IMG/VR virus record: IMGVR_UViG_3300037296_000407
Coordinates: 1 to 34,126 of that record
Source of the DNA: a virus
Lineage: Duplodnaviria; Caudoviricetes
Reading direction: 5' to 3' (one strand)
DNA length: 34,126 nt
Shown: in pieces, positions 2,224 to 34,126 of the stretch
How positions within the stretch are numbered: position 1 is the first letter of the stretch
How the letters are laid out: each line of letters starts with the position of its first letter
Notes under the pieces: generated by a model
What the model saw: the letters and a program-made list of their open reading frames with translations, nothing else
Databases searched by the model: none
Told to the model about the DNA's origin: nothing
Position numbers and translations under genes: made by a program

Positions 2224-3768
2224 TTATGCAAAAAATGCAGGACGAAAACTGATTGATTTACTCGTATTTAATCGGTTGCTATCAACGTTCAGTGCTCCTA
2301 AACCGCAGATAACTCCAAGCGCCCATGTACCCCCTCTGATTGGGAATCTATACCCGTAATTTCGGCAATAAAGCTGGCCTTTCATTGTGCTTCCCGTTTC
2401 AGACTCAATAAGTAAACGGCGGAGCAACTCAATACCTTGATAGCTCTCAGATTTTGTCATTTCTGTTAAATTTTCAACACTTAAATAAGGGCCATTGTAC
2501 CCATTGTCTCCTATGTCCCCGTTACCATTCTCTCTTATGGTGTTAAGAACTGGAGCACCAGCACGTGTTTTTCCTGTATTAATAGAGATAGGCGAATCTA
2601 AAAACGCATCTAACGATTGCCAATCCTGCTCAATTTCAGCGGGGTTATTATCTAATGTTGTTACAATCTGCCCTTCATTAAGCACCATTTGGTCAAGCCA
2701 TTCCCATACATTACCTATTAAGTCTTGAACACCCCATTCAGAATGGTCATGAGACCATGTTGCAGGTCCTTTGCCGGTATCAGTCCTTCCTGTACCTGAC
2801 GTATCTCCGGGTACTCCATTATCCGCACGTCGGGCTGTTTCTATTTTATTTTCGTGGCTTTGACCATAGTTAGTATTGCCGCGCGGTACTGTGTTGTTGG
2901 CTAGTGACCACAGCGCTATTGCTGCCCATTCGTGAATACTCATTAAGTGCCAGCCCGTGCCTTTGTTATTACACAATGCTTTTGCTGTATCGTAGTCAAC
3001 TTCAGTTAGTGGCTGTACGCCGCCTACTACTGCACAGCCATTTTCGGCGGGTGATGCTAAATATTTTGCAATGAGTACTTCGCCAAGTTCTTCGCCATCG
3101 CGTAAAAACATTGTTGGTGTGCCAGTGCCTAGCTTTAGGTCTGCGCCGGTTCTATCTAAAATAGCTTGGTTTATGTCTTCGTAATTAAAGCGAGGAATGC
3201 GCACCATTACATTTTGGTTGCCTTGGTCATCAATTATTACGGTATTACGCCCGCCCGATGCGTTTTCAATTGCTTTTTTATACGTTGCCATTTGTAGTTC
3301 TAACGCGTCTATACGCGGCGTGTAGTCAAACATCCATGATTCTGCCGGTATTGTTATTTGCGAAAGTGCGGCAGCACCTGCAAATTGCAATACAAACGAT
3401 CGGTTATGTACGTTGTTAACGCCCGCTCTTTTGCGTTGCAGCGGCAAGTAATCAAGCGCAATTAGTGTGCCGTCGGTAGTAACTAGGCCTATCCAATTGT
3501 AATCAAAGTCGCCAACGTCTTGGTCTAGCACAACCGACCAGGCAACCGTGTTTTCGTCTACTTTACCGGCGGCATCTATATCGCGGCGGTGCATTATTTC
3601 TAGTTCAGCCGGCAAGCCTTGAGCTGGGTCGCGCGGTATGTTTTCGGTTATGCCTGGAACATTCGCTATTACAATTTCTTTTACTTCTAAACCTTGGTTT
3701 AGTAGCGTTTTGTCTGCAATGTACTGCGTACCTGCGTTTGTAATTATGCCTAGCACTGCGTCTGTCAT
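2224..3768 (-). CDS. Tail fibre / receptor-binding protein: N-terminal tail-collar (DUF3751-like) domain plus C-terminal Mtd-like CLec/FGE-sulfatase-fold domain
   Basis: N-terminal ITNAG and GDFDYNWIGL motifs; C-terminal GWHLMS..EW, G..DL.GNVWEW and RGG.W...G..AL.....R.....I.FRPA motifs. Confidence 0.85.
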   Translation of the reverse strand: MTDAVLGIITNAGTQYIADKTLLNQGLEVKEIVIANVPGITENIPRDPAQGLPAELEIMHRRDIDAAGKVDENTVAWSVVLDQDVGDFDYNWIGLVTTDGTLIALDYLPLQRKRAGVNNVHNRSFVLQFAGAAALSQITIPAESWMFDYTPRIDALELQMATYKKAIENASGGRNTVIIDDQGNQNVMVRIPRFNYEDINQAILDRTGADLKLGTGTPTMFLRDGEELGEVLIAKYLASPAENGCAVVGGVQPLTEVDYDTAKALCNNKGTGWHLMSIHEWAAIALWSLANNTVPRGNTNYGQSHENKIETARRADNGVPGDTSGTGRTDTGKGPATWSHDHSEWGVQDLIGNVWEWLDQMVLNEGQIVTTLDNNPAEIEQDWQSLDAFLDSPISINTGKTRAGAPVLNTIRENGNGDIGDNGYNGPYLSVENLTEMTKSESYQGIELLRRLLIESETGSTMKGQLYCRNYGYRFPIRGGTWALGVICGLGALNVDSNRLNTSKSISFRPAFFA

Positions 3769-28470: not shown

Positions 28471-28859
28471 GCTGCGTCTTCCTTTTGTATTTCTATAAAA
28501 TCCCCCTCTGTTTTGGTATGTTGCAAGTGCGAAATATTCACAAACCAAAACAAAGAGGAAAAACTCATGTCAAACCCAATCTTGAGCGACTGCATAAAAG
28601 CACTTTCAAACAGTCTTACACTTGCAAATGGGCTCAACCATCCAGTTGACGACTCAAAAGCAAAATGCTTATTTAAAGCACTCCACAAAAAAGGCATTGC
28701 CTTAAGTGAAGATGAAGTACTTTTACTGGCTATCGAAAACAACTGGCCTGAAAAACACGCCAAAAAGCTAGCCGACATAGCACAGCGCATTAACGATGGA
28801 CGGCGTGTTAAAATTGACCGCGAAACAAGCTGGGGTGAAACCACCTTAGAAAAAGCCAT
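28467..28859 (-). CDS. Uncertain 130 aa ORF antisense to the DUF1889-like gene, translationally coupled at both ends
   Basis: TAATG overlap with the upstream gene and ATGA overlap with alpA; ends KEDAA like Cro. Confidence 0.4.
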   Translation of the reverse strand: MAFSKVVSPQLVSRSILTRRPSLMRCAMSASFLACFSGQLFSIASKSTSSSLKAMPFLWSALNKHFAFESSTGWLSPFASVRLFESAFMQSLKIGFDMSFSSLFWFVNISHLQHTKTEGDFIEIQKEDAA

Positions 28860-28875
28860 TAAAAATCATCCATAA
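28567..28875 (+). CDS. DUF1889 (YoaC-like) protein, antisense within the early operon
   Basis: L...N...GL.HP.D.S.AK..FK.L...G and W....A.KL...A..I..G..V motifs; GAGG RBS; extended -10 TGgTATGTT at 28514-28522. Confidence 0.75.
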   Translation: MSNPILSDCIKALSNSLTLANGLNHPVDDSKAKCLFKALHKKGIALSEDEVLLLAIENNWPEKHAKKLADIAQRINDGRRVKIDRETSWGETTLEKAIKNHP

Positions 28876-30369: not shown

Positions 30370-30993
30370 TTAAATCCATTTCTTTAATTTTAGCAGTATT
30401 ACTGCAGACTCTGAAAGTGACTGGTTTGCCGTTAATTTCTGATTTCCACCTAAATAAAACTCATCAAGTTCGGCGGTCAACTCTTTAGCGTATGGTTTTA
30501 GGTCATCCATACTTTTAATGTTATTCATAATTTTTGGCGAAAGCGTTTTCTCTGTCCAGAAATGCGCAAGAACGTTGGCAGAAATAGCTAACTTTTGATC
30601 GCTAGTATAACTTGCCCAATTTTTCCCATTCATTTCTCCATAACTTATTTTAATATTATGGACGTACCATTCTTTTTCGCTTTTCTCTTTTTGCTCTACT
30701 GCTATTGGTTTTGTTGTTGACTCAGAATCACTACCACCGCCAATTGCCGCGGCAATAATAATTAAAACTAACCCAAATATATTCGCTCCTTTTTGGGTTA
30801 TTTCTGCATGAGTCACGCCCTTTTCTTCTGACGATTTTTTATTTTTAGAATTAATTTTGTTGAGGATTGGCGGTATTAAAAAGCCAATCGCGAAAAAACA
30901 TATAATACCCGCCAGCACTTCCCCATTATCAAAATGCTTTCCTACACTCGCAATTGCCAATATACCTAACACCCAACCTATTACTTTAGCCAT
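30370..30993 (-). CDS. Membrane-anchored moron protein (about 3 TM segments plus a soluble C-terminal domain)
   Basis: Three hydrophobic segments in the N-terminal 85 aa; AT-rich; has its own upstream region. Confidence 0.75.
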   Translation of the reverse strand: MAKVIGWVLGILAIASVGKHFDNGEVLAGIICFFAIGFLIPPILNKINSKNKKSSEEKGVTHAEITQKGANIFGLVLIIIAAAIGGGSDSESTTKPIAVEQKEKSEKEWYVHNIKISYGEMNGKNWASYTSDQKLAISANVLAHFWTEKTLSPKIMNNIKSMDDLKPYAKELTAELDEFYLGGNQKLTANQSLSESAVILLKLKKWI

Positions 30994-31031
30994 GCCTAAT
31001 CCTTATATTTTCCATAATGTTGCAAAGGTAT

Positions 31032-31077
31032 AGATTAAGTTTTCATTCAGGTTTTAACAACCTGTGGATTTATACAG
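31032..31077 (-). promoter_or_regulatory. Promoter with an adjacent LexA box upstream of the membrane moron
   Basis: Minus strand CTGTATAAATCCACAG (31062-31077), followed by TTGTTA-17-TAATCT. Confidence 0.65.
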
Positions 31078-31096
31078 GTAATAAATTGCAGGCATT

Positions 31097-31125
31097 AAAA
31101 AGCCCGCTAAGTGCGGGGTTTGTTT
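31097..31125. terminator. Intrinsic terminator ending the aca2 operon
   Basis: A5-GCCCGC-taagt-GCGGGG-tttgttt; U-tract on the minus strand; overlaps the stop of the 201 aa gene. Confidence 0.75.
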
Positions 31126-31712
31126 GTTTTATACCAGCGCCTAAAATAGGCATTCATTGCGCTTCTATATTGCAAGTATTTATAGGGTTCTGCGCCTTTT
31201 AATTTTTTAACGTAATTTGACCGCCAAAGCTTACTGTATTCGTTTTGCTTTTGAATAAGCGCTTGCCGCTGCTTTTGTGGTAACGCATTTAAGCGCTTTA
31301 TTCTCATTTGATAACGCTTTTTCTCATAAAGTTGGTCTGCTAATTGCCTTTTTTTATGCCGCTGTTTGTTGTGATTGGGGTTTAACTCAATCAGTTTGTA
31401 ATAGCGCCGCTTGTGTTTTGCTTTGATTTGCTGGTGCTGGCATTCATCGGAACATGTATTGCGTTTAACTCCCCAGTCATCATTTTTAATGGGGGCGCTG
31501 CAAATTACACACGGGCCACGGCGGCACGTTTTGCACGCTGGTTTTTGGCCTTTAGTTAAAGCGCTTTGGTCAACGTCTAGTGTATTACCGCACAAGCATT
31601 GGCATTGCCACACTTTTACAAAATTACGGCCGTGCTTAACATGGCCAACAAGGCGAACTACACGCAGTGCATGAAATTTACAGCCGGTGTAGTCGGTTTC
31701 TAACCCTGCCAT
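31107..31712 (-). CDS. Cys-rich basic protein (CxCxCG domain, CxxC...CSxxC zinc ribbon, basic helices)
   Basis: WQCQCLCG, CKTC, CVIC...CSDEC; ATG directly after the aca2 stop. Confidence 0.7.
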   Translation of the reverse strand: MAGLETDYTGCKFHALRVVRLVGHVKHGRNFVKVWQCQCLCGNTLDVDQSALTKGQKPACKTCRRGPCVICSAPIKNDDWGVKRNTCSDECQHQQIKAKHKRRYYKLIELNPNHNKQRHKKRQLADQLYEKKRYQMRIKRLNALPQKQRQALIQKQNEYSKLWRSNYVKKLKGAEPYKYLQYRSAMNAYFRRWYKTNKPRT

Positions 31713-32066
31713 TTAAATTGTTTCTTCTACTCGCCATTTTTCGGCTTCGCGTTCGCACAAAAGCGCGGCGGCCACTGATTGTGCTAAGCGCCATTTTATG
31801 AGGCTTGCGCCTGTTTTGTTATAAAATTCATCGTAGTCGGCAAAATACTGATACATAGGATCGGTTTTGCTGTATTGCACTTGCAACATATCTAATCGCG
31901 TAAGCGCTAGCATTTGCATTGTTTGCTGTACGTCGCCTGGTATTGCGCGGTCGCCCTTCTCCCAGCGCTGCCATGTGCGCGGTTCGCAGTTGCCAATATA
32001 TTTTGCGGCTTCTGTTACATCTAAAAAAAGTAATGTGCGCAGTTGTTTTATTTCGTTGTTGTTCAT
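31713..32066 (-). CDS. aca2: Anti-CRISPR-associated protein Aca2 (YdiL/DUF1870 HTH)
   Basis: N.E....R.LL.LDV.EAA..IG....R.WQ.WE.G.R..P.DV...M and C-terminal WRL.QSVAA match Aca2; cognate operator upstream. Confidence 0.92.
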   Translation of the reverse strand: MNNNEIKQLRTLLFLDVTEAAKYIGNCEPRTWQRWEKGDRAIPGDVQQTMQMLALTRLDMLQVQYSKTDPMYQYFADYDEFYNKTGASLIKWRLAQSVAAALLCEREAEKWRVEETI

Positions 32067-32080
32067 AATTTTTCTCGCAG

Positions 32081-32104
32081 TAAAAAGCGGCGCTGTGGCC
32101 GCTT
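32081..32104 (-). terminator. Terminator-like hairpin between the candidate acr and aca2
   Basis: AAGCGGC-cacagc-GCCGCTT TTT on the minus strand. Confidence 0.6.
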
Positions 32105-32108
32105 GTTG

Positions 32109-32315
32109 TTATTTTTTCCAGAAAGCAAACTGCTCTTTGTACTTATGTTCGGCCTCTTTCCTTGTGATCGCTTGAGCATAATCTCTTTTATCAACAAACT
32201 GATCACGCTCCTTTTTTGTCTCGAAACGATGAAGGTCGTTTACACCTAATTCAGCACCAAACTGATTACACTCTGTAGCCTGTTCATCTTTGTAAATAGT
32301 CGTTGCATAAAACAT
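32109..32315 (-). CDS. Candidate anti-CRISPR/anti-defence protein (68 aa)
   Basis: Small charged ORF directly upstream of aca2, behind an Aca2-type promoter; no known Acr recognised. Confidence 0.7.
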   Translation of the reverse strand: MFYATTIYKDEQATECNQFGAELGVNDLHRFETKKERDQFVDKRDYAQAITRKEAEHKYKEQFAFWKK

Positions 32316-32317
32316 AA

Positions 32318-32414
32318 TATTCTCACTTTCTTTGAGTAGGCTCGACCCCTTGCCGAACCGTTAAATATATTATGGTCGCATTTGCGACCGATTGCAAGTG
32401 TTTTATTGAATTAC
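32318..32414 (-). promoter_or_regulatory. Aca2-type promoter/operator/5'UTR cassette, copy 1
   Basis: TTGCAA(32392-97)-17-CATAAT(32369-74); inverted repeat GGTCGCA-tt-TGCGACC at 32374-32389; UTR hairpin GGTTCGGC-aaggg-GTCGAGCC. Confidence 0.88.
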
Positions 32415-32425
32415 CTAAAAATTAA

Positions 32426-32803
32426 TTAATAAGCCTCTTGCACCATTTCTACTGAGCGAACCCACGCGCATACTAAGCCGCCTTTGGTGAATGCTTTGCC
32501 AAAAAACTTGCCGTTGCTTAAGTTTCTTTTTGCTTTTTCTAATTCGTAAGTTGCTTTGAATTCTTGTAGTCCGTGGGTATATGATTTTTTAACTGCGCGA
32601 GTATTTAGCGCTAAGCTACTAGATACTTTTGCAATGCGTCTGTTCATTGCGGCAAATAACACTTCATCAGCTGCATTGCTCGTTAATGATTTTATGATTT
32701 TTTTTAGCGACATTGACAAGTAAACGATATAGTCACCGCCGTTTTCAAGCTGGTATGCTTTAGCTAGTTTGTGTGCTGCTTTGAAGATTTCTGATTTAGT
32801 CAT
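32426..32803 (-). CDS. Candidate anti-CRISPR/anti-defence protein (125 aa, basic)
   Basis: ATG at 32803 at the same cassette position as the 68 aa gene start; begins MTKSEIFKAAHKLAK. Confidence 0.7.
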   Translation of the reverse strand: MTKSEIFKAAHKLAKAYQLENGGDYIVYLSMSLKKIIKSLTSNAADEVLFAAMNRRIAKVSSSLALNTRAVKKSYTHGLQEFKATYELEKAKRNLSNGKFFGKAFTKGGLVCAWVRSVEMVQEAY

Positions 32804-32806
32804 TTT

Positions 32807-32902
32807 TATTCTCACTTTGTTTGAGTTGGTTCGACCCTTGCCGAACCGTTAAATATATTATGGTCGCAATTACGACCAATTGCAAGCGATTTATTGAATT
32901 AC
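32807..32902 (-). promoter_or_regulatory. Aca2-type promoter/operator/5'UTR cassette, copy 2
   Basis: TTGCAA(32880-85)-17-CATAAT(32857-62); inverted repeat TGGTCGCAATTACGACCA; hairpin GGTTCGGC-aagg-GTCGAACC. Confidence 0.88.
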
Positions 32903-34126
32903 TTTTAAAATAAACTTTTCCCACACTTCTATACTTTGGCGTTTCTCTTTCATGTAATCGTATCTGTCGTAGTGAACGCTTGATACGTCAAACTTGTTAT
33001 GCTGCTGGAGTATGTCGCGGTTTATCTTATCTATGCCTGCTTTGCCCATAAGTGTTTTACATGTACGCCTTAAATCTCGCGGGTTGAAATGGGGCACGTT
33101 GTTTTTTTCACTCCAGCGTATTATTGCCATTCTTAATGTTGATACGTGGGCGGTTGCTGTTGGGTTGTCGCGATGCGGGAACATTTGCCCGGCTTTGCCG
33201 CTTTGCTGCATTAGCTCTTGTATTGTTGGTATTGCGGTTTCGCATAATGGCACTATGTGATCGCCCCGCTGTTTTACTTTTATTCGGCTTGCAGGAATTG
33301 TGAATGTTTTGTTTTTTATATCAAAGTCACTTACGTACGAGCCATAAACTTCGTTTACACGTTGGCCACCAAGTAACAATGCTAGTTTTATGTATTGGTG
33401 GGTGTAATAAGGTAGGTCGTCGGCATTCCATACTTTTTTAAGCTCTTCTTCGTTTAACCAGCGTTCGCCTTTGTTTTTTGGCGTTTCAAAATTTATGTCT
33501 CTGATGAAGTTGGTTTTTATATCGTAGTGATTTGGCTTTTTGTATTGCTCCGGTGAGTTATCAAAGTCGATAGCGAATTTTAATATGCTCATTAGTACGC
33601 TGCGAACTAGGCGAGCTTGTTCTTTAGCGCCGCGATTGTAAACACGGTAAATAATGTCGCGGGCCATATCTATTGTGAACTCGTCGGGCATTAAATCGGG
33701 CGCCATAAACGGGGTGAGGTTTCGCTTTATTAGCTTTTCGGTCCGGTCGATTGTTGATGCTGCCCAGCGAGTGCTTATGTATACGTTAAAATCATCAAGC
33801 ATTTGATGCATTGTTTTTTTAGCTGCTGATTCAAACTTGGCTTTTTGGTTTTGCAGGCGCTGTTCTTGTGGGTCGATATTGTCACTTAGCAATGCTGATA
33901 TTTTTGCATGTTTACTGCGCGCTGTTTTCAGATCAACAATTGGGTAGTTGCCAAGGCCTATCACTTTACGCTTGCCGTTTATATGATATTGAACGCGAAA
34001 CGTTTTAGCGCCCGATTCACTAACTCTTATTTGCAAGCGCCCTTCCCCATAATTACCTGATTCAGTTAATACATAGCGTTTTTCTTTTGCTTTAAGTGCT
34101 TTTATTGATTTGTCTGTAAAGTTCAT
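32891..34126 (-). CDS. int: Tyrosine integrase with an Arm DNA-binding domain (P4-like)
   Basis: N-terminal FTDK.I..LK, G.K.F, LG.YP..L..AR; catalytic GQR..E, RDLRRT, H and HYDRY motifs. Confidence 0.96.
   Translation of the reverse strand: MNFTDKSIKALKAKEKRYVLTESGNYGEGRLQIRVSESGAKTFRVQYHINGKRKVIGLGNYPIVDLKTARSKHAKISALLSDNIDPQEQRLQNQKAKFESAAKKTMHQMLDDFNVYISTRWAASTIDRTEKLIKRNLTPFMAPDLMPDEFTIDMARDIIYRVYNRGAKEQARLVRSVLMSILKFAIDFDNSPEQYKKPNHYDIKTNFIRDINFETPKNKGERWLNEEELKKVWNADDLPYYTHQYIKLALLLGGQRVNEVYGSYVSDFDIKNKTFTIPASRIKVKQRGDHIVPLCETAIPTIQELMQQSGKAGQMFPHRDNPTATAHVSTLRMAIIRWSEKNNVPHFNPRDLRRTCKTLMGKAGIDKINRDILQQHNKFDVSSVHYDRYDYMKEKRQSIEVWEKFILKVIQ

Follow-up and report, generated by a model that had tools for sequence, protein, structure and literature searches.

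Two small open reading frames (ORFs) of 125 and 68 aa lie directly upstream of a 117-aa helix-turn-helix (HTH) gene in a phage genome, with the integrase adjoining and all genes on the minus strand, raising the question of whether they belong to an anti-CRISPR operon of the acr-aca2 type and which defence they might inhibit. A sequence-only reading had described this layout, which the ORF listing bears out, and had proposed that both genes encode new inhibitors of host immunity. Here, we follow up this proposal computationally.

Results

A discrete insertion behind the integrase

The window, by which we mean the whole 34-kb phage contig analysed here, carries capsid, portal, terminase, tail and replication genes of the P2/HP1 type. 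The records closest to it are the Pseudoalteromonas phages PY3 and C5a, and the named source of near-identical Aca2 and 201-aa proteins is a Pseudoalteromonas genome. PY3 matches the window at 32905-34126 (integrase, 94%) and at 31024-31081 (58 nt, 91%), and because these matches are separated by 15 nt in PY3 and by 1,823 nt in the window, we treat the locus as one discrete insertion that includes a 201-aa gene. The cassette runs from a control unit through the 125-aa gene, a second control unit, the 68-aa gene, aca2 and the 201-aa gene to a terminator (Table 1), and is, judged from its sequence, an acr-aca2-type insert that follows the integrase in a P2-like phage of Pseudoalteromonas. The last codons of the integrase (window 32891-32904) come from the insertion, the end of the protein differs from that of PY3, and the integrase stop codon sits within the sequence upstream of promoter 1. 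A circular permutation relative to a related locus, L036, was considered and dropped, no terminal repeat being present.

Table 1 Coordinates of the cassette in the window and of candidate genes in related loci.
Feature	Record	Position	Strand	Remarks
Whole inserted cassette, 3' of integrase	window	31082..32904	-	1.8 kb (1,823 nt); PY3 comparison
Integrase	window	32891-34126	-	adjoins cassette; ORF listing
Promoter 1	window	32857..32885	-	TTGCAA-17-CATAAT; Aca2-type operator palindrome 32862-32877 (one mismatch); before 125-aa gene
Two 5'-UTR hairpins (Aca2 RNA-motif type)	window	32811..32847	-	before 125-aa gene; -14.5 kcal/mol, z -4.1
125-aa candidate	window	32426-32803	-	ATG start (129 aa from upstream GTG); pI 9.85
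Promoter 2	window	32369..32397	-	TTGCAA-17-CATAAT; perfect operator palindrome 32374-32389; before 68-aa gene
Two 5'-UTR hairpins	window	32322..32359	-	before 68-aa gene; -14.3 kcal/mol, z -2.8
68-aa candidate Acr, unnamed family	window	32109-32315	-	pI 6.7, net charge 0
GC-rich hairpin and U-run between 68-aa gene and aca2	window	32082..32104	-	inspection
aca2 (117 aa, HTH)	window	31713..32066	-	PF08965, solved Aca2 chains
201-aa basic Cys-rich protein, third cassette gene	window	31107..31712	-	pI 10.13
Terminator-like hairpin closing the cassette	window	31088..31117	-	computed from sequence
165-180 aa family member	L001	4428-4925
165-180 aa family member	L006	4296-4838
165-180 aa family member	L036	2825-3340	reverse
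165-180 aa family member	L039	3198-3713
Slot Acr candidate	L004	1216-1485
Slot Acr candidate	L005	3692-3961
Slot Acr candidate	L006	3571-3954
Slot Acr candidate	L043	1874-2236	reverse
Slot Acr candidate	L015	2208-2447

Some genes elsewhere in the window are recorded here in passing. A 120-aa DUF1889 ORF (28513-28875, plus strand) runs in the opposite direction to the early genes and is overlapped by a 130-aa minus-strand ORF. A 207-aa membrane-type protein adjoining the repressor (30370-30993, minus strand), found in C5a (78% at the DNA level) and absent from PY3, possibly acts in superinfection exclusion. A tail fibre gene (2224-3768, minus strand) contains an FGE-sulfatase-like domain, a fold that occurs in targets of diversity-generating retroelements; no reverse transcriptase was found among the 49 window ORFs scanned.

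The HTH gene encodes Aca2

The 117-aa protein scores 67.4 bits against PF08965 (cut-off 23.8) and matches solved Aca2 chains at E-values of 2e-19 to 1e-16, compared with 1e-7 for YdiL, which places it with Aca2 as originally proposed. It is nearest to the Aca2 proteins of loci L001 and L036 (tree support 81/88). The DNA-contact residues of Aca2 (R30, Q33, Y34, W35, and R39 or D39/R40) are recognisable in it: R30, Q33 and W35 are kept, as is D45, which presumably has a role in RNA binding, and R34 and D39/R40 replace Y34 and R39 of ZF40 Aca2. The accessible text of an earlier study notes the D39/R40 form for Shewanella and Vibrio Aca2, and describes contact between Tyr34 and the T at position two of the operator half-site (PMC8633003). 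Arg34 is present in 18 of the 19 Aca2 proteins that we examined, Tyr34 in ZF40 only; all 17 operators directly 5' of the slot gene (the gene immediately upstream of aca2) in loci with an Arg34 Aca2 have G at the second half-site base, and ZF40 alone has T. Residue 34 and the half-site may form a specificity pair (Arg34 with GGTC, Tyr34 with GTTC), which we regard only as a lead because a single contrast amounts to a single event. Two further loci, L012 and L013, have aca2 without a small gene or operator in the 400 nt upstream.

Two control units precede the small genes

The regions 5' of the two small ORFs are copies of one block (79 nt at 89% and 31 nt at 90% identity, at a spacing of 488-489). 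In both promoters, a 16-bp palindrome fills the spacer between the -35 and -10 boxes and touches the -10 box, the IR1-type arrangement of acr-aca2 operons; the inverted repeats reported from the sequence are thus real palindromes, one perfect and one with a single mismatch. Allowing at most one mismatch, the palindrome pattern occurs at four places in the 34-kb window, two of which are these operators. The description of the promoters as near-consensus sigma70 sites needs qualification, as both score 9/12, the lowest passing score, reached by 13 sites against 8.2 ± 3.0 in shuffles, which is within chance. We accept them because the block is duplicated and conserved in related loci, not on the consensus match alone.

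Each unit also has a leader with two predicted 5'-UTR hairpins, as in acr-aca2 operons, a feature that the sequence-only reading missed while correctly noting the promoter and inverted repeat. None of 200 shuffles folds as stably as the leader before the 125-aa gene, and two of 200 do so for the leader before the 68-aa gene. The same two-hairpin fold is predicted for the ZF40 leader and for 10 related units, and the loop-closing pair of hairpin 1 varies on both sides with pairing kept (C-G, G-C, A-U). According to the available part of a recent study, Aca2 binds two leader hairpins of this type, blocking translation (PMC13551039). The window units are 75-85% identical to seven units before acrIF9 or acrIF10 and 83-90% identical to two first-gene units. 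The proposed resemblance to the acrIF8-aca2 operator of ZF40 also holds, the blocks being 63-65% identical with the palindrome in the spacer; promoter and operator of the ZF40 unit have been tested experimentally (PMC6765145, accessible text). For both small ORFs, the spacing between leader hairpins and start codon equals that in acrIF9 and acrIF10. A hairpin with a U-run, like that between the 68-aa gene and aca2, is found 5' of aca2 in 14 of the 16 related loci inspected and is absent in L008 and ZF40; from its sequence, it is likely a leaky terminator. Scans with the promoter pattern gave further real units in 4/11 genome matches and 2/3 metagenome matches, the rest being dropped as they were without a leader. 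We consider Aca2 regulation of the cassette very probable on these sequence features.

The slot before aca2 is commonly occupied by type I-F inhibitors

To place the cassette among its relatives, we compiled 18 further loci in which a gene stands immediately 5' of aca2, found through Aca2 or promoter similarity. Loci without a slot gene (L012, L013) and duplicates (L016-L019, L031, L058) were left out, and the remaining loci are not fully independent, with close pairs L009/L010, L001/L036 and L003/L030. In 13/18 loci the slot is filled by AcrIF8, 9, 10 or 11, all type I-F Acrs: AcrIF9 in six (one by a PDB match at E 7e-41, five by clustering), AcrIF10 in five (three by NCBIfam, two by clustering), and AcrIF11 and AcrIF8 in one each; the occupant is unnamed in the other five. 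The twin-unit layout occurs in three of the 18 (L001, L036 and L039), where a 117-118-aa gene bearing the N-terminal module discussed below comes first and acrIF10 second. Together with the leader hairpins, this supports the earlier assignment of the operon to the acr-aca2 type.

Two by-products of the census are listed in Table 1. Five unrelated, unnamed genes directly before aca2 in other loci are each an Acr candidate, and in four loci the position immediately 3' of aca2, taken in the window by the 201-aa gene, belongs to an unnamed family of 165-180 aa.

The 68-aa protein represents an unnamed family

The 68-aa protein has four relatives at 50-88% identity, and of 1.84 billion representatives, 37 are picked up by its family profile, four longer fusions being part of the family. 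Residues Y3, L28, R30, F31, R37, D38, F63 and W66 are conserved. None of the 10 representatives looked up carries a name, and the Atlas gave unnamed clusters only. No match was obtained in Pfam, PHROGs, NCBIfam or PDB sequences, libraries that do not include every Acr, nor to the AcrIF8/9/10/11 slot proteins; tblastn of this ORF and the 125-aa ORF against 50,697 phage records was equally negative. The predicted structure (pLDDT 84) is a small alpha/beta fold without a significant fold match in the PDB; a resemblance to RRM domains (best Z 4.6 in VIA) was judged to reflect a common arrangement. Within the scope of these sequence and fold searches, this ORF was not recognised as a described Acr, in line with the earlier reading. 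The protein is neutral, as opposed to acidic AcrIF10 (pI 4.05). Acidic domains on three homologues (P0044, P0067, P0069) were considered as AcrIF10-like, and an extension on P0062 as an RHH regulator; neither idea found support in Pfam, NCBIfam or PDB.

A context search for the family was negative for all 113 candidate stretches of viral contigs and for all 401 genomes. The neighbourhood check suggested earlier did yield one homologue in context, through a pattern search: in a 4.3-kb locus of a T7-like phage it lies among small genes before the integrase and RNA polymerase, and no aca2 is present in that locus. There (L045 1623-4257), the integrase directly precedes the RNA polymerase, and palindromes precede the homologue upstream of it.

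We regard the 68-aa protein as quite likely to be an anti-defence protein of some kind, and give a specific action on type I-F systems even chances, both estimates being drawn from sequence comparison. The cassette could alternatively be Aca2-regulated with one or both genes countering a non-CRISPR defence such as restriction-modification, abortive infection or nucleotide signalling. Aca-regulated genes include many non-Acr kinds in the accessible text of PMC13551039, among them methyltransferase, Mom, PAPS-reductase and helicase genes; moreover, the T7-like early region holds a 68-aa homologue without aca2, and Csy3 is present in only one of the four genomes with related cassettes. Against this, all 13 named slot occupants are type I-F Acrs, and AcrIF20, which shares the module of the 125-aa protein, is a tested type I-F inhibitor (PMC7648647, part available), leaving a non-CRISPR role for one or both genes rather unlikely in our estimate.

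The 125-aa protein joins a shared module to a separate C-terminal part

The 125-aa protein has thirteen near full-length relatives at 39-99% identity, including one at 99%. Its model (pLDDT 92) shows three helices followed by a beta-rich part. No Foldseek match at E<=0.001 was found in PDB or BFVD, and the best VIA match (Z 7.1) is confined to the N-terminal helices, in a search that barely covered the C-terminal part. Scans of family and PDB sequences gave nothing significant except the unnamed phrog_12732 (residues 1-57). No full-length relative was recovered in genomic context; nine viral loci and 2/401 genomes match mainly via the N-terminal portion. Residues 1-42 form a helical module; in the 35 sequences that bear it, what follows falls into 14 unrelated C-terminal groups.

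This module is shared with AcrIF20. In hhalign, residues 1-42 align with a probability of 96%, and no shuffle out of 100 that keeps the first eight residues reaches the score; for residues 9-42, 5/100 shuffles do so, and an HMM comparison of residues 9-42 with one AcrIF20 sequence is not significant (220/500 shuffles). Locus L062 encodes AcrIF20.1, a module bearer with the sequence given in the supplement of PMC7648647, as far as that was available. The module is also present in Gp111 of streptococcal phages (17.2 bits, 0/300 shuffles), and Atlas neighbours of the 125-aa protein carry the corresponding family PF07410; the 125-aa protein itself stays below the Pfam cut-off for PF07410, and its best relative reaches 13.2 bits against 27.1. 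In phage TP-J34, the Gp111 gene lies behind a promoter, directly before acrIIA6. The accessible text of PMC8934645 reports a near-identical Gp111 (orf1) as toxic in E. coli, with no Cas9 inhibition seen, so that of two tested module bearers one (AcrIF20) is an Acr and the other, being toxic, gave no clear answer. The statement that this ORF is not recognised as a described Acr accordingly needs qualification, its module being shared with AcrIF20 while its C-terminal part has no match beyond chance.

We asked whether the 125-aa protein could be a distant full-length homologue of AcrIF20 and hence no new family. A whole-length hhalign alignment (88%, E 3e-6, 110 columns), whose score is reached by 2/100 shuffles, and the similar lengths (125 and 121 aa) with a colinear C-terminal stretch point in this direction. 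However, the retrieval of AcrIF20 depended on the eight initial residues that both proteins share, and without them the similarity falls to chance level (residues 9-125, 29/100 shuffles); with two AcrIF20 sequences, residues 43-125 and 80-125 are matched by 14/100 and 5/100 shuffles, respectively. As the module also occurs with so many unrelated C-terminal groups, we consider full-length homology improbable. Treating the 125-aa protein as a module with a C-terminal part of its own, we lean towards an anti-defence function on the comparisons above; inhibition of type I-F in particular is a tentative possibility.

In five loci (L020, L022, L023, L025 and L026), a module gene is followed by an HTH-like gene, with a promoter palindrome in four of the five, and this is a possible unnamed aca-type cassette; the gene 3' of the module gene is recognised as HTH in L020 and L027, and weakly in L026.

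A third gene follows aca2

The 201-aa gene starts at the base right after the aca2 stop codon. The sequence-only reading had named the two small genes as candidates, which we retain, and had overlooked this one. Homologues occur in two of the retrieved loci, each time within an aca2 cassette: after aca2 in the acrIF11 locus L008 (43-45% identity) and before the first unit in the acrIF10 locus L036 (68%). The protein matches DUF2116 and the N-terminal part of an HNH nuclease weakly.

The strongly basic nature of the 125-aa and 201-aa proteins (Table 1), together with the toxicity of Gp111 in E. coli and its lack of observed Cas9 inhibition (PMC8934645, accessible text), would fit early host-takeover or toxic accessory proteins that are tightly repressed in the lysogen, rather than immune inhibitors. 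Yet known Acrs occupy the slot in related loci, and PY3, though closely related, has no such cassette, as would be expected if the cassette were dispensable cargo directed against host defences; we judge this explanation quite improbable. Spurious or decayed small ORFs, a reading for which only their size speaks, are scarcely credible: homologues that span the whole length and keep both ends are found at identities of 88% to as low as 40-50%, the models of both proteins are confident, and the start-to-leader-hairpin distance is as in acrIF9 and acrIF10.

Discussion

Our analysis favours, with moderate confidence, a cassette in which Aca2 likely represses two promoter-leader units and the 68-aa and 125-aa proteins are likely immunity inhibitors, the target of the former being most likely type I-F. 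By analogy with ZF40 work, both promoters would fire upon phage entry and the small proteins would accumulate first, with the hairpin and U-run before aca2 lowering read-through into it. Aca2 dimers would then occupy the two operators as well as the hairpin pairs of the two leaders, shutting down transcription and translation. The 68-aa protein would putatively bind the Csy complex or Cas2-3 via a conserved surface and, unlike AcrIF10, would not be an acidic DNA mimic; in the 125-aa protein, a distinct payload directed against host defences would reside in the C-terminal part.

The cassette thus offers two, probably three, well-supported candidate families of immune inhibitors from a marine Pseudoalteromonas phage, and Pfam's function-less Gp111 family becomes tied, via the shared module, to acr clusters in two phyla. 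The module occurs in AcrIF20 and in streptococcal Gp111, and in Proteobacteria and Firmicutes it is joined to a dozen or more unrelated C-terminal domains. A speculative extension, to which we assign a small chance, is that the module acts as a general leader of counter-defence proteins, directing different payloads to one shared target in the host, and that all three cassette genes represent new inhibitor families; if true, anti-defence genes could be sought with the leader module as a new bait. A literature search covering few subscription papers turned up no description of the 68-aa and 125-aa families, nor of the module as an anti-defence feature.

Previous studies give a range of expectations for genes in such positions. 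In the available parts of these papers, hit rates for such neighbours extend from 9/9 candidate families tested upstream of aca5, all inhibiting type I systems (PMC7648647), down to 9 families from ~30 candidates (PMC8934645). In the latter study, orf1-17 next to acr genes showed no inhibition of three Cas9s, a result that says little on orf1, which is Gp111 and was toxic.

Among known systems, the acrIF10-aca2 loci of Shewanella and Plesiomonas prophages (L001, L036, L039) resemble the window in gene order, in Aca2 (62-72%) and in their units (82-90%), and L036 also has the 201-aa gene. They differ in having AcrIF10 in the second slot, where the window has the 68-aa protein; their first gene shares the module, but its C-terminal part clusters apart from the 125-aa protein, with the 125-aa family profile extending to residue 108 of the L039 protein. 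The acrIF8-aca2 operon of ZF40, as far as described in the accessible text of PMC6765145 and PMC8633003, is similar in its Aca2 (39% identity), 16-bp palindrome, two-hairpin leader and location near the integrase. It has, however, the half-site GTTC with Y34 rather than GGTC with R34, one unit rather than two, other cargo, and no hairpin with a U-run before aca2.

AcrIF20 (PMC7648647, part available) resembles the 125-aa protein in its ~40-residue N-terminal module, length, basic pI and first place in an acr cluster, whereas its C-terminal similarity is not significant and it belongs to aca5 loci of Pectobacterium. Gp111/PF07410 of Streptococcus thermophilus phages shares the module and its position as the first gene behind a promoter before acrIIA6, but has another C-terminal part, a Gram-positive host and no aca2.

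Finally, multi-motif Aca2 loci with several DNA/RNA motif pairs before neighbouring genes, as in the window, are described in the available part of PMC13551039, so twin Aca2 motif pairs before unnamed genes are already published. Over half of the 450 Aca-regulated genes reported there are unannotated, and the window ORFs may be among them; the text of its supplement, searched apart from gene lists and figures, does not mention Pseudoalteromonas, AcrIF20 or Gp111. The type of system is therefore already known, and the cassette is one more example of it, with new candidate genes.
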